From positions 16,300-48,299 of the forward strand of contig CALWNN010000025.1 in assembly GCA_944382845.1 (NCBI GenBank): a stretch of 32,000 nucleotides of DNA. Direction: 5' to 3'. The position numbers were made by a program, and so were the translations under genes. This document shows positions 4,443-25,773 of the stretch, piece by piece. The number at the start of each line of letters is the position of its first letter. Position 1 is the first letter of the stretch. The notes below the pieces were generated by a model. It saw only the letters and a program-made list of their open reading frames with translations, had not been told where the DNA came from and searched no databases. Origin of the DNA: an uncultured Clostridia bacterium. GTDB lineage: Bacteria > Bacillota > Clostridia > Oscillospirales > Ruminococcaceae.

Positions 4443-4534
4443 TGGAGAGGTACCCAAGTGGTTGAAGGGTCCGGTCTTGAAAACCGGTAGGCGGGTCAAA
4501 CCGTGCGTGGGTTCGAATCCCACCCTCTCCGCCA
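4443..4534 (+). tRNA. tRNA-Ser (anticodon UGA), CCA encoded
   Basis: The cloverleaf folds by hand. Acceptor GGAGAGG/CCTCTCC, anticodon stem CCGGT/ACCGG with loop CTTGAAA, a long variable arm, T-arm GTGGG-TTCGAAT-CCCAC, discriminator G plus CCA. Confidence 0.9.
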
Positions 4535-4592: not shown

Positions 4593-4682
4593 GCAGAAAT
4601 ACCCAAGTGGTGAAGGGGCTCCCCTGCTAAGGGAGTAGGTCTGGAAACGGGCGCGAGGGTTCAAATCCCTCTTTCTGCGCCA
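4593..4682 (+). tRNA. tRNA-Ser (anticodon GCU), CCA encoded
   Basis: Acceptor GCAGAAA/TTTCTGC, anticodon stem CTCCC/GGGAG with loop CTGCTAA, a long variable arm, T-arm GAGGG-TTCAAAT-CCCTC, then G plus CCA. Confidence 0.9.
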
Positions 4683-17897: not shown

Positions 17898-19121
17898 ATG
17901 GAAATTATTAAAGGTGGTATTACTTCTGCAAAAGGATTTAATGCTTCTTCAACAGGGGCTGGTATAAAATATGGAAACAGGGATGATATGGCTATGGTCT
18001 ATAGTGATGTTCCTTGTGTTGCATATGGTGTATTTACTTCAAATGTTGTGAAGGCGGCACCGGTAATATGGGATAGAGATATTGTTGAAAAATCGCCTTA
18101 TGTTCAGGCAATTGTTGTAAACTCTGGTATTGCAAATGCTTGTACCGGTGAGATTGGACTTGCTGTCTGCAGGGAGACTGCTGAAAAAACTGCAAGTATG
18201 CTTGATATTCCATCTAATGCTGTTCTTGTATGTTCAACAGGTATAATTGGAAAACAGCTTCCTATAGATAAAATAAAAAAAGGAATAGAGAATCTCTCTA
18301 AAGATCTTGATTCTACATATGAAAAAGGACATAAAGCAGCGTGTGCCATTATGACGACAGACACGGTATCGAAAGAATATGCTGTTCAGTTTAATATAGG
18401 CTGTAAAACAGTTACAATAGGTGCAATGTGCAAAGGCTCCGGAATGATACATCCTAATATGTGTACTATGTTGGCGTTTATTACAACAGATATTTGTATT
18501 TCAAAAGATTTATTAAAAAAAGCAATTAAGAACGATGTTCTTGACAGCTTTAATATGATATCGATCGACGGTGATACTTCAACTAATGATTCGTTATTGG
18601 TTTTGGCAAATGGTATGGCTGAAAATGAAATGATAACCGAAGAAAATGATGATTATAGTGCATTTTGTGCAGCCTTACAGGAGGTTACTAAGCATCTTTC
18701 AAAGATGATCGCTTCTGACGGTGAGGGTTCAACAACTCTGATGGAAGTTACAATAAAAAATGCTGATACCAAGGAACACGCCAGAATTATGGCAAGATCG
18801 GTCGTTTCATCATCACTGGTGAAATCGGCTATTTATGGCAATGATGCAAACTGGGGACGTATTCCTTGTGCCCTTGGGTATTCGGGAATAGAATTTAATC
18901 AGGAGATTTACGATATATATTACATAAGTTCAAATGGTAATATACAAGTTGTAAAAAATGGATTGGATTCGGGTTATGACGAGAGTATTGCAACAAAAAT
19001 ACTCTCGTCAGACGAAGTAATTATATTAGTTGATTTAAAAATGGGGCATGAAACAGCAACGGCTTGGGGATGCGACCTAACTTATGATTACGTAAAAATT
19101 AATGCTGACTACAGAAGTTGA
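17898..19121 (+). CDS. argJ: Bifunctional glutamate N-acetyltransferase / amino-acid acetyltransferase
   Basis: 407 aa starting at MEIIKGGITSAKGFNASSTGAGIKYGNRDDMAMVYSD, with AGGAGG 7 nt upstream. It has the autoprocessing site PNMCTMLAFITTD and the family C-terminus DLTYDYVKINADYRS. The ORF-track start at 17517 runs through IS debris. Confidence 0.9.
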   Translation: MEIIKGGITSAKGFNASSTGAGIKYGNRDDMAMVYSDVPCVAYGVFTSNVVKAAPVIWDRDIVEKSPYVQAIVVNSGIANACTGEIGLAVCRETAEKTASMLDIPSNAVLVCSTGIIGKQLPIDKIKKGIENLSKDLDSTYEKGHKAACAIMTTDTVSKEYAVQFNIGCKTVTIGAMCKGSGMIHPNMCTMLAFITTDICISKDLLKKAIKNDVLDSFNMISIDGDTSTNDSLLVLANGMAENEMITEENDDYSAFCAALQEVTKHLSKMIASDGEGSTTLMEVTIKNADTKEHARIMARSVVSSSLVKSAIYGNDANWGRIPCALGYSGIEFNQEIYDIYYISSNGNIQVVKNGLDSGYDESIATKILSSDEVIILVDLKMGHETATAWGCDLTYDYVKINADYRS

Positions 19122-20012
19122 TTTCATAACCTTGATGAAGTTAGAAATGCTGTAAAGGAAAACACAAGGGCGATCTATATTGAAACCCTTGGAAACCCCA
19201 ACAGTGATGTTCCTGACATTGAGGAGGTAGCAAAGCTTGCTCATGAGCTTGGGCTTCCCCTTGTTGTTGACAACACATTCGCAACGCCTTATCTTGTAAG
19301 ACCTATTGAATACGGAGCTGATATAGTCGTTCATTCAGCGACAAAATTTATTGGCGGACACGGAACGACTTTAGGCGGAGTTATAGTTGACGGAGGAAAA
19401 TTTGACTGGGGTCTTTCTGGAAAATATCCTGCGCTTTCCGAGCCTAATCCTTCCTATCACGGAGTTGTGTTTACAGACGCTGCAAAGGACGCTCCTTTCG
19501 CAACATATATCCGTGCGGTCATTTTAAGAGATATGGGAGCCTGTATTTCCCCGTTTTCCGCATTTATGCTTTTGCAGGGAACCGAGACCTTGTCTTTAAG
19601 AGTTGAAAGACAGGCTGAAAACACAAAGAAGATAGTTGAGTTTTTAAATTCTCATCCTCAGGTGGAAAAGGTAAATCATCCGAGCCTTAATGAACATCCC
19701 GACAACAAAATTTACAAAAAATATTTTTCAAAGTGAGGCGGCTCTATTTTTACATTTGAGATAAAGGGCGGAGTAAAAGAAGCTTATGCTTTTATTGATT
19801 CCTTGAAAATATTTTCACTTGTTGCCAATGTTGCGGACGTAAAAAGCCTTGTGATTCATCCGGCGACTACAACTCACAGCCAGCTTACAGGAAGTGAGCT
19901 TGAAGAGCAGGGAATAAAACCGAACACGATCCGCCTTTCTATCGGAACAGAGCATATTGACGACCTTTTGACTGACCTTGAAAACGGCTTCAAAGCTGCG
20001 GCTGAGGTCTGA
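19122..20012 (+). pseudogene. metY: O-acetylhomoserine sulfhydrylase, 5'-truncated and interrupted by an in-frame TGA
   Basis: The frame is open from the codon after the argJ stop. FHNLDEVRNAVKENTRAIYIETLGNPN...HSATKFIGGHGT (PLP lysine)...KKYFSK*GGSIFTFEIKGG...SIGTEHIDDLLTDLENGF. The first roughly 140 residues are absent. The TGA is at 19734-19736, and both halves are in the same frame. Confidence 0.8.
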
Positions 20013-21024: not shown

Positions 21025-22368
21025 TTATTCATCACGCAAAGTGATATTCATTGCTCTCATGGGGTAAATTTGTGCGGATAAGCCGCGGACTAAAACCGAA
21101 ACCTCCTTGCTGTCGGGGTAAAATCTTGTGCTTAAAACTTTTCTGCCCTTGTCAAGATAAATTTCAAGTGATGACGTGTCAGCAATGATTCTTATGTCGT
21201 TGCAATTATCCATTTCGGCATACCTGATATCTCGTCCGAAACCGACCATGCCAAGAAATTTAAGCTCAAAAAGTCCGTTTTCGTAATGCAAAACAATATC
21301 CTTGTCAATGATGATTTCATATTTGCCTGAAACCTCAGCCGTAAGATCAAATGGCAACTTGAATTTTTCGCAAGACCCGTCAGCAATGATAATTTCATCT
21401 TCTCTTAGGGAATTTATTTCAGTGCAGGGAAGCTGAGAAAGAGTACCATGCTCATTTACCCTTACCTCTCTGGGAAGTGTAAGACAGTGTTGCCATCCAA
21501 GTGCAACTGTGGGATTGCTGTAGGGTATGTCGCCTATACCCATCCAGCCAATAATTATCCTTCTGCCGTCAGGCGTTTCAAAAGTCTGAGGGGCGTACCA
21601 GTCAAATCCGCAGTCCCACTCGGTATAACGTCCTAAGCTGTCCTCTGAAAATTTAAAATATCCCGAACTGTAAACGTTCTGGAATATGACTTTATGGTGA
21701 GGGACTCCCTGGGGAGAAAGACTCAGAAATTTTCTTCCTGAAATTTCAAAAAGGTCGGGACATTCCCACATGAATCCGAAATTTTCGGTTGTTATTTTTT
21801 CTTCAAAGACCCAGTTCTCAAGATCGTCGGAACTGTATATCATAACGCATCCCTTGTCCTCAAGCGTTCTCGCACCCAGCACCATTTTGTATTTTCCTTG
21901 TTCAGAATAAATTTTCGGATCGCGCACATGACAGGAGCAATAAGAGGGATAATCTTTGTTTTCGAGCACAAGTTTTTTGCCGCTCATTACTTTTCCGTCT
22001 TTGGTTGTAACGTGAAGAACGTTTGCGCCTCTTCCGGAAGTCACATAGTCGTGGTCGCCATCTTCCATAACGTTTCCTGTGTAAAAAAGGTGCATGGTAT
22101 CGTCTGTGCAGATTGCACTTCCTGAGAAAACCCCGTCCTTGTCATAAGGAGTATCAGGGTAAAGGACAGTGCCGGTAAATTCCCAGTTTAACAAATCAGG
22201 GCTTTCATAATGCCCCCAGCACTTGCGTCCCTCTCCCAAAGGACTGTCAGGAGAGTACTGAAAGAAAACATGGTATTTTCCTTTGAAATAACATAAACCG
22301 TTGGGGTCGTTGAGCCAACCTTTTTGAGGCTCTAAATGCAGCTTTTGCCGCCATTTATCATTATTCAT
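21025..22368 (-). CDS. Glycoside hydrolase family 32 (sucrose-6-phosphate hydrolase / beta-fructofuranosidase)
   Basis: 447 aa from MNNDKWRQKLHLEPQKGWLNDPNGLCYFKGKYHVFFQYSP (WMNDPNG-type nucleophile block), with RDPK and WECPDLF motifs. AGGAGA RBS. The 26-codon extension in the ORF track lies in repeat copy A. Confidence 0.9.
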   Translation of the reverse strand: MNNDKWRQKLHLEPQKGWLNDPNGLCYFKGKYHVFFQYSPDSPLGEGRKCWGHYESPDLLNWEFTGTVLYPDTPYDKDGVFSGSAICTDDTMHLFYTGNVMEDGDHDYVTSGRGANVLHVTTKDGKVMSGKKLVLENKDYPSYCSCHVRDPKIYSEQGKYKMVLGARTLEDKGCVMIYSSDDLENWVFEEKITTENFGFMWECPDLFEISGRKFLSLSPQGVPHHKVIFQNVYSSGYFKFSEDSLGRYTEWDCGFDWYAPQTFETPDGRRIIIGWMGIGDIPYSNPTVALGWQHCLTLPREVRVNEHGTLSQLPCTEINSLREDEIIIADGSCEKFKLPFDLTAEVSGKYEIIIDKDIVLHYENGLFELKFLGMVGFGRDIRYAEMDNCNDIRIIADTSSLEIYLDKGRKVLSTRFYPDSKEVSVLVRGLSAQIYPMRAMNITLRDE

Positions 22369-22380
22369 ATTAATTCTCCT

Positions 22381-22721
22381 TTTGAAGATTTCAAATTTAA
22401 ATCGGAGCAAAGCGTTGATAATTACATCTCCATCGGAGCTATACATCTCTTTCAGAGCTAAACATCTCCTTCGGAGCTAAACATCTCCTTCGGAGCTGTG
22501 CTTAATCACGTTGCGACGATTGCAATCATCGCCGAGGAGCTTTGCTCCTCAGTTTTTCAGTGGGGGATTAAAACCCCCACTGAAAAACTGAATGGAACCT
22601 CGCCTCCCATAGGAGGCGGATCATCCTATAGGAGGCAGATCATCCCATAGGAGGCGGACCCGCCTAATATGAGGCAGACCTGCCGAACATTCGGCAGGGG
22701 GACATCGGCGACTTAGTTATA
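22381..22721. repeat. Modular hairpin-array intergenic repeat, copy A (341 bp)
   Basis: It aligns end to end with 25511-25773. It holds 4 tandem 19-nt modules ACATCTCCTTCGGAGCTNN (22424-22499). A conserved core follows with palindromes GCGACGATTGCAATCATCGC, GAGGAGC-TTT-GCTCCTC and TTTCAGTGGGGG-ATTAAAA-CCCCCACTGAAA. Then come 5 tandem modules of about 20 nt of the CCTCCCATAGGAGGCGGATCAT type, ending GACATCGGCGACTTAGTTATA. Confidence 0.9.
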
Positions 22722-22753
22722 TGCGATTCAAATAACAATTTAATGCTTCTATC

Positions 22754-22786
22754 AAAAAACGAGCGGCTCACAGCGAACCGCCCGTT
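22754..22786 (-). terminator. Rho-independent terminator of the GH94 gene
   Basis: The minus-strand RNA reads AACGGGCGG-UUCGCUGUGA-GCCGCUCGUU followed by U6. It begins 16 nt after the stop at 22802. Confidence 0.6.
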
Positions 22787-22801
22787 TATTATGATTATAA
22801 A

Positions 22802-25210
22802 TTAACCAAGAACAACTTCTATCTTAGTGTTTTCAGTCATCTTGCACTGGCAGACAAAGTTTCCTTCAACAGCCTCGCCGTTTACAGTCATTGACTTTAC
22901 TCCGCTCTGAACGTGGTCGGGGTTCTTGATGTCAATTGAAAGGTGACAGCCTCTGAAGTTCTTTTCGATCTTGAATCCATCCCATGCGGAAGGAATAGAA
23001 GGATTGATAACAAGTCCCTCTGCGTTTGGTCTCATACCACATATACCTTCAACACAGCCTACCATTACGGTTGAACCTGTACCTGTAAGCCAGTGAACGT
23101 GTGAACGTCCTGCGAACGGTGAACGTGTGGATTCGGTAAACTGTCCGTGAACATACGGCTCAAGAACTCTTATCTCTGCCTTGTCATTCATGCTTGCAGG
23201 AGCGGATTCAAGGAAATACTCGAATGCTCTGTCGCCATGTCCGAGAAGGGATTCGGCAAGAATTGCCCAGCCCTGTGTCTGAGAGAAGATACCGCCGTTT
23301 TCCTTTGTATCAGGATTGAAGATGTGCATAAGTGCGCCGTCAAAGTAGTGATCAACATAAGGCGGTTCAAGAAGCTTGATTCCGTATGGAGTGTTAAGAA
23401 TCTCGTGAACCTTTTCCATTGATATTTCAGCCTGTTCCTTGGTTGCAAAGCCTGAGATAACAGCCCATGACTGAGGATTGAGCCACATATTGGCTTCAGG
23501 GTCGTTCTTGGCGCCGACTACAACGCCGTCTTCTCTGATTCCTCTGATAAATCTGTCCTCGTCCCAGCACTTTTCAAGGCTCTTAGCAAGCTCACCCTGA
23601 ACCTTTTCAATGTAAGCAACATATTCAGTATCGTTTCTGTCCTGAGCATAGCCCTTGATAACAGTCATAGCGTAGTAAAGCTGGAATGCAACGAAAGTGG
23701 ATTCGCCCTTTTTGCCCATTCTCAGGCAGTCATTCCAGTCGGCATGAAGTCCTGCCGGCATTGCATGATCGCCAAGTCTTTCCATTGAGAAACGAATAGC
23801 TCTCTTGAGGTGGTCGTAAACGGTATCCTCACCGCCGTTAGCGTAAACGATAACTTCATCAAGGAATGCCTTGTTTCCGCTTTCTCCGATGTATTTCACA
23901 ATTGTCGGGAACAGCCAGAGAGCATCGTCGGCTCTGTAGGAAGGATGACCTGTCTGCTGAGCGTACTCGGAAGCCTCATTGTTTTCATCGGGGCAATTTT
24001 CGTGGCCTGCGTTGTGGTCAAATTTAACAAGGGGAAGTCCGCCGCCGTTATCAACCTGTGCGGAAATCATGAATCTGATCTTTTCAGCAGCAAGCTCAGG
24101 ATTGATGTGAATGATACCCTGAATATCCTGAACAGTATCTCTGTAGCCGTAGCCGTTTCTCAATCCGCAGTAGATAAACGAAGCAGCTCTCGACCAGATG
24201 AATGTGATAAAGCACTGGTAAGCGTTCCATACGTTTACCATGTTGTTGAATTCATCGGATGGGGTGAATACCTGGAAGTTGTTGAGCTGACCATGCCAGT
24301 AATCAACAAGTTCTTTTATTTCAGCGTCGCACTTTCCTTTTTCTTTGTAGCTGTCAAGGATCTCGGAAGCGACTGTAGGATTTTTCTGACCGAGAACGTA
24401 GATAACCTCAACAGTTTCGCCGGGAGCGACCATTACTTCAGACTGAAGAGCGCCGCAAGCGTTTCCGTTGTAGTTGCACTTGTTGTCGCAGAAGCCTCTT
24501 TCAACGGCAATAGGATTTCCGTATGTTCTGTAGGTACCGATAAAGCTGTCAAGATTTCCGTTGTAAGCGCAAACAGGCGCGCCTACCACGCCGAAGAATC
24601 TTTCTCTCCAGTTCGAGCCGTTTTCGTCCTTGCCGCTGTTTTCATTAATGTGCTGAACGATCATGTTTTTCTCAAAGGAAGTTCTTGTAATAAAGAGAGT
24701 GTACTGAAGGTTTACCTGATCCTGTTCGTAGTTGTTTTCATTTGTAAATTCAACAAAACCGAAAAGTGAAAGGTTTCTTACAACATCGCTTGTGTTTGTT
24801 ACCTTTGTTCTCCACACTTCATAAGTCTTGTTGAGAGGAACGTAATAGGTAACCTCTGAATGGATGTCGGCATAATCCGCAGTCATAGTTGTGTAAGCTG
24901 TACCGTGGCGGCAGACAGACTTATACTTGTCAAGGGGCTTGCCGACAGGCTGCCATGAAGCTGACCAATAATCAGCAGTGTCGTTATCTCTTATGTAGAT
25001 ATAACGACCGGGAACAGAAATGTTTGTGTTAAAACGATAACGAATATGTCTGCCGTTTGCTCCGCTCTTTACAAAGCTGTATCCTCCTGCATTATTTGAG
25101 ATAATAGCACCATACTCAGGTGAACCTAAGTAGTTTGCCCATGGTGCGGGGGTATCGGGTCTTGTGATAACGTATTCTTTGTTTTCAAGGTCAAAGTATC
25201 CGTACTTCAT
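22802..25210 (-). CDS. GH94 glycoside phosphorylase (cellobiose phosphorylase-like)
   Basis: 802 aa from MKYGYFDLENKEYVITRPDTPAPWANYLGSPEYGAIISNNAGGYSF, the canonical cellobiose/chitobiose phosphorylase N-terminus. It has the catalytic-Asp block GLHADWNDCL and the C-terminal WLTGTGS. GGAGAG RBS. The ORF-track start at 25300 is an over-extension. Confidence 0.9.
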   Translation of the reverse strand: MKYGYFDLENKEYVITRPDTPAPWANYLGSPEYGAIISNNAGGYSFVKSGANGRHIRYRFNTNISVPGRYIYIRDNDTADYWSASWQPVGKPLDKYKSVCRHGTAYTTMTADYADIHSEVTYYVPLNKTYEVWRTKVTNTSDVVRNLSLFGFVEFTNENNYEQDQVNLQYTLFITRTSFEKNMIVQHINENSGKDENGSNWRERFFGVVGAPVCAYNGNLDSFIGTYRTYGNPIAVERGFCDNKCNYNGNACGALQSEVMVAPGETVEVIYVLGQKNPTVASEILDSYKEKGKCDAEIKELVDYWHGQLNNFQVFTPSDEFNNMVNVWNAYQCFITFIWSRAASFIYCGLRNGYGYRDTVQDIQGIIHINPELAAEKIRFMISAQVDNGGGLPLVKFDHNAGHENCPDENNEASEYAQQTGHPSYRADDALWLFPTIVKYIGESGNKAFLDEVIVYANGGEDTVYDHLKRAIRFSMERLGDHAMPAGLHADWNDCLRMGKKGESTFVAFQLYYAMTVIKGYAQDRNDTEYVAYIEKVQGELAKSLEKCWDEDRFIRGIREDGVVVGAKNDPEANMWLNPQSWAVISGFATKEQAEISMEKVHEILNTPYGIKLLEPPYVDHYFDGALMHIFNPDTKENGGIFSQTQGWAILAESLLGHGDRAFEYFLESAPASMNDKAEIRVLEPYVHGQFTESTRSPFAGRSHVHWLTGTGSTVMVGCVEGICGMRPNAEGLVINPSIPSAWDGFKIEKNFRGCHLSIDIKNPDHVQSGVKSMTVNGEAVEGNFVCQCKMTENTKIEVVLG

Positions 25211-25394
25211 TTCACATCTCTCCTTTAATTTTAAATTAATTTCATTTTTTATTGTGAATGCTGAGACAGCCTTTTCACAGTTACAATTATGATAACACAT
25301 TTCACATTGCTTTACAAGGGTATTTTTTAATTTTTTATCATAATTTTTTAGCTTAAACGTTTAATATTCTAAAGGTTTATTGAACGTTCAGGCG

Positions 25395-25490
25395 GCGGCT
25401 TGCCCCTGCCGGGAAGCGGCATGGGTTTTCGTGCCATAAGGCACGAAAAAAAGCGGTCCGGCACAAAGCACCGGACCGCGGGCAAGCCGC
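25395..25490. other. GC-rich 96-nt nested-hairpin (four-way-junction) element
   Basis: The outer 11-bp stem GCGGCTTGCCC (25395-25405) / GGGCAAGCCGC (25480-25490) encloses three hairpins. These are TGCCG-GGAAG-CGGCA, TTTTCGTGCC-ATAA-GGCACGAAAA and GCGGTCCGG-CACAAAGCA-CCGGACCGC. The element sits in an AT-rich spacer. Confidence 0.6.
25446..25479 (-). terminator. Rho-independent terminator of the GH5 transcript
   Basis: The minus-strand RNA has a perfect 9-bp stem GCGGUCCGG/CCGGACCGC followed by U7. It is the third hairpin of the nested element. Confidence 0.7.
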
Positions 25491-25510
25491 ATAAGACACT
25501 GCGGTAATCG

Positions 25511-25773
25511 TTTATAGATGTAAAATTTAAATCGGAGCAAAGCGTTGATAATTACATCTCCTTCGGAGCTATACATCTCTTTCAGAGCTGTGCTTAATCA
25601 CGTTGCGACGATTGCAATCATCGCCGAGGAGCTTTGCTCCTCAGGGTTTCAGTGGGGGATTAAAACCCACACTGAAAAACTGATTGGAACCCTGCCTCCT
25701 ATTGGAGGCAGATCATCCCAGAGGAGGCAGACCTGCCGAATATTCGGCGGGGGACATCGGCGACTTAGTTATA
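25511..25773. repeat. Modular hairpin-array intergenic repeat, copy B (263 bp)
   Basis: It has the same ends and core as copy A but only 2 of the 19-nt modules and 3 of the roughly 20-nt modules. The 78-bp length difference equals 2x19 + 2x20. Its last bases (TTATA) supply the stop codon of the GH5 gene. Confidence 0.9.

Follow-up and report, generated by a model that had tools for sequence, protein, structure and literature searches.

Two copies of a hairpin-rich element flank a GH94 gene

We analyzed a 32,000-nt stretch of DNA from an uncultured Clostridia bacterium (contig CALWNN010000025.1, positions 16,300 to 48,299; hereafter the window), in which two copies of an intergenic, strongly folding element, A and B, lie on either side of a GH94 gene. 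The host is a spore-forming gut organism of the Clostridia type, as its cotJ and spoVG genes indicate. The genes and features of this locus lie on the minus strand of the window, which is the top strand of the element. Reading along that strand, the upstream neighbor of copy B is a GH5 cellulase gene (25769..27010; Pfam Cellulase, E = 6e-60), followed by copy B itself (25526..25768; 243 nt), the GH94 (cellobiose phosphorylase-type) gene (22802..25210; Pfam Glyco_hydro_94, E = 8e-138), copy A (22396..22716; 321 nt) and a GH32 gene (21025..22368; Pfam Glyco_hydro_32N, E = 1e-85). The GH94 coordinates are those of the 802-aa form called in other strains, whose 802-aa product is on record; the open reading frame (ORF) in the window has 832 aa. 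Similarly, the recorded start of the GH32 gene differs between a 447-aa product called in the loci L032-L036 and the 448-aa ORF of the window.

Copy B directly follows the GH5 stop codon and precedes an intrinsic terminator-like hairpin at the end of the GH5 transcription unit, which was flagged by a terminator scan (25453..25479; a 12-bp stem with 9 GC pairs, then TTTTTTT). Copy A is located between a hairpin with a T-run 3′ of GH94, terminator-like from sequence reading only and unflagged by the same scan, and the ribosome-binding site of GH32; 27 nt separate the 3′ end of the element from the GH32 start codon. At the 5′ end of each copy stands the pentanucleotide TATAA, which belongs to the host DNA outside the element. 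For copy A (22717..22721) this assignment follows the family-wide 5′ flank; for copy B (25769..25773) it follows from empty and filled alleles and from the end of the GH5 ORF, the last three bases of the motif being the stop codon TAA.

Copy A opens with a conserved 5′ terminal segment, CTAAGTCGCCGATGTCCCC (22698..22716; family form CYAAGTCGCMGATG), and continues into a 5′ hairpin array of five units of 19-22 nt (22598..22697), delimited by a module map and Tandem Repeats Finder, which expands the single hairpin P1 of typical family members. Next come the long hairpin P2 (22549..22591; arms TCAGTTTTTCAGTGGGGG and CCCCCACTGAAAAACTGA), recovered in an inverted-repeat search and carrying five covarying base pairs family-wide, and the hairpins P3 (GGAGCAAAGCTCC) and P4 (GGCGATGATTGCAATCGTCGC) (together 22513..22548), placed by family alignment and module map. 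A 3′ array of four 19-nt units, AGCTCCGAAGGAGATGTTT (22424..22497; module map and Tandem Repeats Finder), sits within the loop of hairpin P5, and one of its units carries a double change from CTCC-GGAG to CTCT-AGAG. The copy closes with the conserved 3′ terminal segment AATTATCAACGCTTTGCTCCGATTTAAA (22396..22423), of which GCTTTGCTCCGATTTAAA is the same, or almost the same, in every sub-family. In copy B, the 5′ array has three units (25690..25749; module map) and the 3′ array two (25554..25589; module map and Tandem Repeats Finder). Tandem Repeats Finder placed period-19 arrays at 22424-22497 (3.9 copies), 22605-22684 and 25553-25589. Every block shared by A and B is 92-100% identical.

An initial annotation of this region, made from the letters alone, had described two direct copies with shared ends and variable modules. 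Both copies exist, and the counts it gave for A and B (four against two units in one array, five against three in the other) are right by the module map. The difference of exactly 78 nt in 19/20-nt tandem units also holds, with alignment gaps of 38, 39 and 1 nt. Details of the stems needed revision. What had been called a perfect 12-bp stem is in fact an 18-21-bp hairpin in A, with 21-nt arms that are 95% complementary, and the corresponding hairpin in B is more degraded than the single mismatch claimed for it. Two of the units described as CCTCC-CATA-GGAGG hairpins are truncated half-hairpins (CCGCCTCCTATGGGATGAT) that pair well only with neighboring units.

Empty and filled alleles define the ends of the element

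We recovered the same locus in other strains by look-up of the GH5 protein, and further loci by look-up of the GH94 protein. Copy B is missing in seven assemblies (L032, L035, L037-L040 and L084), among which L032 has flanks 99.3-99.7% identical to those of the window. The empty allele reads ...GCCGTATAA/TTTTACATC (/ denotes the junction; core junction GTATAA/TTTTACATC, longer reading ...GCCGTATAA/TTTTACATCTATAAACG), and the filled allele reads ...GCAGTATAA/CTAAG...GATTTAAA/TTTTACATC, or equivalently ...GCAGTATAA/CTAAGTCGCC...GCTCCGATTTAAA/TTTTACATC. The two differ by 243 nt located directly after the GH5 stop codon, with a junction ambiguity of at most 2 nt (AA). The target duplication at this one locus, with its seven empty alleles, is thus either zero or 2 bp, and none is clear.

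Because TATAA and the 15 nt on the other side of copy B are both present in the empty allele, both are host DNA. This comparison, together with more than 20 other family members, sets the bounds of the element at 22396-22716 for A and 25526-25768 for B, so that the ranges first proposed were too wide at both ends: at the low-coordinate end they took in 15 nt of ordinary flank, 11 of which happen to be alike in A and B, and at the high-coordinate end the 5 nt of the target motif.

Copy A is present at every readable site, and the number of its units varies by strain, from 3 to 6 in the 5′ array and from 2 to 5 in the 3′ array. In copy B the corresponding ranges are 3-5, with five units in the strain of L036/L081, and 2-4, with four units in L083. 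The 5′ half of copy B in L036 is A-like, which on sequence grounds indicates that A and B probably exchange sequence.

The element belongs to a dispersed family

Copies A and B are members of a dispersed, gene-less, multi-copy family of spore-forming human-gut Clostridia. One 20-nt pattern taken from the element's 3′ terminus matched 36 metagenome contigs, and those with labelled records are human-gut assemblies. Many of these contigs end 25-55 nt inside the element, and at least 16 element ends came from one sample at ~3x coverage. Contigs that end inside the element, and many ends per sample, are the mark of a multi-copy repeat that breaks short-read assemblies. About 30 distinct sites were recorded in gut metagenomes.

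A typical member is ~165 nt long (160-185 nt). Its 5′ end is conserved, five hairpins follow, and the 3′ end, GCTCCGATTTAAA, is invariant. With flanks, the first half of such a member reads TATAA/CCAAGTCGCAGATG (optional GTGACCAAGGGGTCAGACCC) TCCCCCGCCTC-loop-GAGGCGGG TTCCATT TCAG-ACTTTCAGCGGGGG-TCATAA-CCCCCGCTGAAAGT-CTGA, and its second half GGAGCAAAGCTCC C TGCGACGGTTGCAATCGTCGCA GCGTGATTAAGCGAGCTTATCACGC TTTGCTCCGATTTAAA/flank; the 3′ end occurs family-wide in the forms ACGCTTTGCTCCGATTTAAA or TTGCTCCGATTTAAA. Relative to this layout, the window copies show two changes: the first hairpin has become an array of 3-6 units, and a second array occupies the loop of the last hairpin. Such arrays are confined to the species of the window, and typical members carry single hairpins. 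The earlier description of a modular family with conserved ends and a variable count of internal hairpin modules is therefore borne out by the window copies and their relatives.

We built a covariance model, R1, from 14 typical copies. Within the window only A and B match it, A with 98 bits on the minus strand versus 41 bits on the plus strand and B with 108.7 bits. With R1, three more copies were found in the same species, all with TATAA on the 5′ side, within 10 kb beyond the start of the window, giving a density of five copies in ~52 kb. In L078 the additional copies occupy 13406-13555 (-), 15332-15515 (+) and 19614-19744 (-); one is without hairpins P4-P5 and one without P2-P3, and a diverged copy fits exactly between a stop codon and the ribosome-binding site of a ClpB-like gene. 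The third of these copies differs by one 19-nt unit between L078 and L079. Weak matches to the covariance model in L055 and L046 were rejected as family members.

Interior modules are deleted, duplicated or swapped across the family, and the ends are retained: the deletion variants in L051, L055 and copies C and E of L078 all keep both termini. Retention of the ends while the interior is lost is as expected if a transposition machinery needs them. Sub-families (L052/L054 and L066) have only their last 16-28 nt in common with the rest. The members at L052 1016-1129 and L054 4854-4950 share the last ~28 nt (GAGTTATCACGCTTTGCTCCGATTTAAA) and have an unrelated interior; their contigs stop ~100 nt upstream of the shared end, which may represent the right end of a longer element, possibly one with genes. 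In L072 (797-1060), a family copy contains a ~100-nt foreign insert in the P2 loop, exactly after GGGGGTATAA. This insert again stands 3′ of a TATAA, here exposed in a hairpin loop, and has hairpins of its own without the ends of the family. In L090 (about 2930-2960), Illumina adapter sequence (AGATCGGAAGAGCG) at the contig end is joined to the element; this is an artefact of a public metagenome assembly.

Searches elsewhere were negative. Scanning 185,579 species genomes with GCGAYGATTGCAATCRTCGC returned 31 loci, all of them chance occurrences in which the palindromic pattern alone matched. That pattern is specific to the A/B variant of P4, where typical members have GCGACGGTTGC, and because of this restriction the scan says nothing on distribution. 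A blastn search with A and with a typical copy found no match in plasmids and phages, and three scans of viral contigs found none either. Against Rfam 15, searched with the window and with typical copies at gathering and permissive thresholds, the best element matches reached 22-27 bits versus thresholds of 48-79, in line with the initial statement that no Rfam family is recognizable; outside the element the matches were confined to tRNA, tmRNA and the L10 leader.

Insertion is specific for site and orientation

At 22 of 23 distinct sites the 5′ flank of the element is TATAA, and at the remaining one AATAA; one of the 22 has TATGA in two of three strains. The 3′ flanks are unrelated to each other, though they tend to begin with A. 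None of about 35 distinct 3′ flanks starts with TTATA, the reverse complement of the motif, and insertion is therefore orientation-specific with respect to an asymmetric target. The element itself begins with CYAAGTCGC... and ends with ...GCTCCGATTTAAA, with no long terminal inverted repeats.

All sites are intergenic. Relative to the downstream gene, about 16 copies are co-directional and 18 convergent, and the ratio relative to the upstream gene is 7:7. In copy B, copy D of L078, L050 and L059, the stop codon (the TAA of TATAA), the element and the next ribosome-binding site follow each other directly. Because TATAA contains a stop codon, copies often fall into this position, where they are presumably co-transcribed. 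The other copies flank unrelated genes, and a special link to GH94 or to sugar-utilization cistrons, as envisaged at first, is not supported.

Covarying hairpins fold equally well on both strands

Compared with shuffled sequences, the element folds with z-scores of -7.9 and -8.8 for the two strands of A and -5.7 and -6.5 for those of B, and no shuffle was as stable on either strand. On an alignment of the 14 copies we drew by hand a structure of six helices, in which 88.9% of the alignment cells pair. Double changes occur at 11 base pairs. Column shuffles gave 4.5 +/- 1.5 (none of 500 reached 11), and sliding the partners gave 1-4. The stems thus carry the compensatory changes that the initial annotation had proposed to look for. 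Five of the 11 fall in P2, where two adjacent positions appear as AC-GT, AG-CT, GA-TC, GG-CC and TC-GA. In P4, a C-G pair is T-A in L062 and T.G in the window.

The subterminal hairpins retain pairing in 76-95% of cells, with double changes. P1 begins 11 nt from the 5′ end and P5 stops 16 nt from the 3′ end; an alternative GGAGC...GCTCC pairing stops 8 nt from the 3′ end. GGAGCAAAGC may also pair at long range with its complement GCTTTGCTCC, located close to the 3′ end; this putative helix is ~93% paired and invariant.

Neither strand is favored. Paired folding energies make the top strand more stable in 11 of 20 copies (p = 0.74), and G.T and A.C mismatches number 43 versus 38, the exception being a conserved G.T pair in P4. 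The compensatory changes support selection, or hairpin-templated repair, acting on a folded nucleic acid, RNA or DNA alike. Two results, the equal folding of the strands and the nearly 50:50 orientation with respect to genes, are better explained by an element acting at the level of DNA than by a gene-oriented RNA.

A gene-less element, probably of the IS200/IS605 type

The initial annotation had named a non-autonomous mobile repeat as one possibility, and three findings support it: strains differ in whether they have copy B, with an exact empty site where it is missing, further copies occur in the same species, and dozens of sites exist in gut metagenomes. With moderate confidence, we take A and B to be copies of a non-autonomous insertion sequence (IS) derivative of the IS200/IS605 type, similar to the palindrome-associated transposable elements (PATEs) and moved in trans. 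We propose this type of transposition because the family combines a pentanucleotide on one side only, insertion in a single orientation, subterminal hairpins and an empty allele that is seamless to within 2 nt, and has neither long inverted ends nor a clear duplication. Together these features are the textbook signature of IS200/IS605 transposition, as in IS608 and ISDra2.

By this mechanism the element would move as single-stranded DNA by 'peel-and-paste', with a Y1 (HUH) transposase of the IS200/IS605 kind as the putative catalyst in trans. It would insert 3′ of TATAA, used as a transposon-adjacent motif (TAM), and be cut after its own similar terminal TTAAA, and the hairpins near each end would be the handles of the transposase. 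An excised circle would join the 3′ end to the 5′ end as ...GATTTAAA/CTAAGTCG.... At about 18160-18180 of L032, and also in L033-L036, a 17-mer TCCGATTTAAA/CTAAGT joins the element's 3′ end to its 5′ end within an intergenic region that the window is without; such a junction is expected for an excised circle or for two abutting, mostly deleted copies, and could also be chance in AT-rich DNA. The 19/20-nt arrays probably represent tandem duplications of hairpin units whose number would change by slippage or unequal recombination; swapped between A and B, they would behave as variable-number tandem repeats.

PATEs themselves are said to have been described by Dyall-Smith et al. 2011 as gene-less derivatives of IS200/IS605-family insertion sequences. 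The present family resembles them in being short, non-coding and multi-copy, without long inverted ends or clear target duplication; in inserting directly 3′ of a fixed motif of 4-5 nt, always the same way round; in having a 3′ terminus of its own with a similar, non-identical motif (TATAA versus TTAAA); and in its hairpins near both ends and an empty allele that is seamless to within 2 nt. Gene-less PATE-like elements have ends in common with full-length IS605-family elements, and a flanking TAM and a slightly different terminal transposon-encoded motif (TEM) have been described for them (Meers et al. 2023, PMC10055086). Here the TEM would be TTAAA and the TAM TATAA, for which a literature search found no report as a TnpB or IS605 target motif. 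Unlike PATEs, the family has subterminal hairpins that are unlike each other and three additional conserved, covarying hairpins in the interior, neither a partner transposase nor a full-length IS with the same ends came to light in the window and ~420 kb of related loci, and in the species of the window its hairpin units have been amplified into unstable tandem arrays.

Several observations weigh against an IS200/IS605-type origin. No Y1 transposase or TnpB-like ORF was recognized in the window, and motif searches detected none in the ~420 kb of related loci. The hairpins P1 and P5 are unlike in both sequence and shape, and the heptamer GTCGCAG that precedes both is their sole shared feature; in IS608-type elements the left and right subterminal hairpins resemble each other. 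By inspection, TATAA and TTAAA show no evident pairing with bases 5′ of the hairpins. A bias of the top strand towards the lagging-strand template, expected for this mechanism, is not significant: local GC skew, a noisy proxy for the direction of replication, is positive along the element at 17 of 27 sites (17:10). The single empty site permits a 2-bp AA duplication, and the ends can pair, if only weakly, through an imperfect 7-nt complementarity (TAAGTCG with CGATTTA). Finally, the conserved, covarying interior hairpins exceed what a transposase needs.

Three other assignments were rejected. The window ORFs 143-1324 and 1321-1818, considered as a tnpB/tnpA pair, encode an aminotransferase and an AsnC-type regulator. 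An integron attC site would require a GTTRRRY core, which is lacking, and it is the element alone rather than a gene cassette that is present or absent. An IS110-type element does not fit a 3′ flank that is not conserved.

Alternative explanations

The main mechanistic rival, which we regard as unlikely, is a miniature inverted-repeat transposable element (MITE) moved by a DDE-type transposase, in which the element would run CYAAGTCG...CGATTTA, with very short imperfect inverted ends, and would duplicate a 2-bp AA target. The empty and filled alleles are compatible with that duplication, the ends can pair as just described, and a DDE_Tnp_1 IS is present in one strain (L032). DDE MITEs such as Correia, RUP and bcr1, however, normally insert either way and have longer inverted repeats. 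Here the inverted ends span 7 nt and are imperfect, as against 10 bp or more, and the duplication is at most 2 bp; the target is asymmetric, five bases being fixed at one flank and none at the opposite one; and among the about 35 sites none is reversed relative to it.

A second alternative, which strikes us as a little less probable still, is that the conserved, covarying 3′ two-thirds of the element (~120 nt; P2-P5 plus tail) form a stand-alone guide-RNA gene. This segment would be a scaffold like the omega-RNA, the right-end guide RNA that serves TnpB in IS605 and IS607, with the adjoining host flank as its guide, and a TnpB- or IscB-type nuclease encoded elsewhere would recognize TATAA, re-cut emptied sites and so restore the element. 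The geometry is compatible with TnpB systems, in that a fixed motif marks the 5′ flank and a structured segment of ~120 nt ends at the 3′ boundary, where variable sequence follows; the interior hairpins are conserved by compensatory changes; and PATEs have been reported to often encode omega-RNAs acting in trans (PMC10055086). If true, this reading would explain both the elaborate interior of a gene-less element and the frequency of about one copy per 10 kb. In contrast to omega-RNAs, however, the segment has no linked tnpB in the window and related loci, no sequence or structure match in Rfam and no strand asymmetry in its structure, and it is known from sequence alone. No convincing internal promoter was found, and many copies are without large parts of the putative scaffold.

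Improbable, and slightly more so than a guide RNA, is a structured RNA acting in cis for the benefit of the host, as an mRNA stabilizer, a processing site or an insulator between cistrons; functions of this kind have sometimes been proposed for BOX or REP elements, and the initial annotation had offered one here. The very stable fold and its covariation would suit such a role, as would the intergenic location of all copies and the position of several within operons, where a stop codon precedes the copy and a ribosome-binding site follows it. Orientation relative to genes, however, shows no preference, and the neighboring genes are unrelated. Placement relative to terminators is inconsistent, with A after a terminator-like hairpin (from sequence reading) and B before a flagged terminator. 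Copy B is dispensable in the seven assemblies that lack it, and both strands fold equally well, so that no strand is marked out as the functional RNA.

A purely local duplication around GH94 without a wider family, suggested by the two copies in the window and by the chance matches of the A/B-specific palindrome scan, is refuted by the three further copies within 10 kb in the same species and the about 30 gut-metagenome sites.

Relationship to other repeat families

The architecture had first been likened to pneumococcal BOX elements and enterobacterial BIME/REP clusters. The architectural likeness stands, but TATAA on one side only, a single orientation and the lack of inverted terminal repeats and of a clear duplication point to IS200/IS605-type PATEs instead. 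BOX elements (boxA-boxB(n)-boxC) share conserved ends, variable internal modules, intergenic location, strong folding, a length of about 100-300 nt and copy-number differences between strains. They differ in their Streptococcus host, the comparison being one of descriptions and not of sequences, and in that the typical member here is without arrays, modularity being a secondary expansion in one lineage. To our knowledge, neither a strict flanking pentanucleotide nor a single orientation has been described for BOX.

REP and BIME repeats, and the REPINs moved by RAYT (Y1), are likewise intergenic palindromic repeats of variable number per cluster, and their transposase belongs to the HUH/Y1 superfamily, as is proposed here. 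REPs, however, are single 20-40-nt palindromes in alternating orientation, whereas here the units repeat directly in tandem inside a composite of 165-321 nt whose 5′ and 3′ ends differ from each other. The family would work like a PATE and, through its amplified modules, looks like BOX in this lineage. It is a new family within a known class; it is neither a new class nor a regulator of sugar genes.

Other features of the locus

The spore-coat gene cotJC (Mn_catalase), beside cotJA and cotJB, is apparently split by an insert (window 27700-29590; L032 819-9249; L033 4664-6492) that encodes a 555-aa large serine recombinase (window 27923-29590, minus strand). The second part of cotJC is ~7.7 kb distant in L032, and the DNA between the two parts holds AbiEi-like and ParA-like genes, the recombinase and an additional DDE_Tnp_1 IS. 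The insert resembles a skin-type sporulation 'intervening element'.

At 17331-19117 the window has 1786 nt, including an ArgJ-domain ORF (17517-19121), where L032 carries 752 nt of unrelated sequence (17652-18404). A gene for a Cys/Met-metabolism PLP enzyme, intact in L032-L036, loses its 5′ part at the breakpoint. Upstream of a VWA-domain gene (window about 4244 onward), prophage-like content differs by strain (L078/L079 1-6400 versus L080 1-5700), one set having Bro-N/ANT, two DNA methylases and a recombinase, and the other a holin and a CHAP lysin. The window also has two long-arm tRNA genes of 87-88 nt (4444-4531 and 4593-4679), 150 nt apart; each scores 61.2 bits with the Rfam tRNA model, and they have a 24-nt repeat in common.

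Consequences for host genes and genomes

Effects of the element on host genes are plausibly incidental. With copy A in place, 321 nt of structured sequence directly precede the GH32 ribosome-binding site. Its reconstructed empty site, ...CGCATATAAT/TTGAAATC..., contains a perfect TATAAT ~25 nt upstream of that ribosome-binding site, and judging from this reconstruction copy A may have split a promoter -10 box, leaving TATAAC and a 321-nt structured leader. More generally, TATAA overlaps stop codons and resembles a -10 box, so that copies land at gene boundaries and could alter their neighbors, GH32 being an example.

A family this dense fragments short-read assemblies of human-gut Clostridia, and knowing it helps both assembly and annotation. 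The unstable 19-nt arrays and the presence or absence of copies separate strains that are ~99% identical and can serve as typing markers. If a transposase or nuclease partner is found, the family would offer a clean natural model of single-strand transposition and might also supply trans-acting guide RNAs in an uncultured gut lineage.

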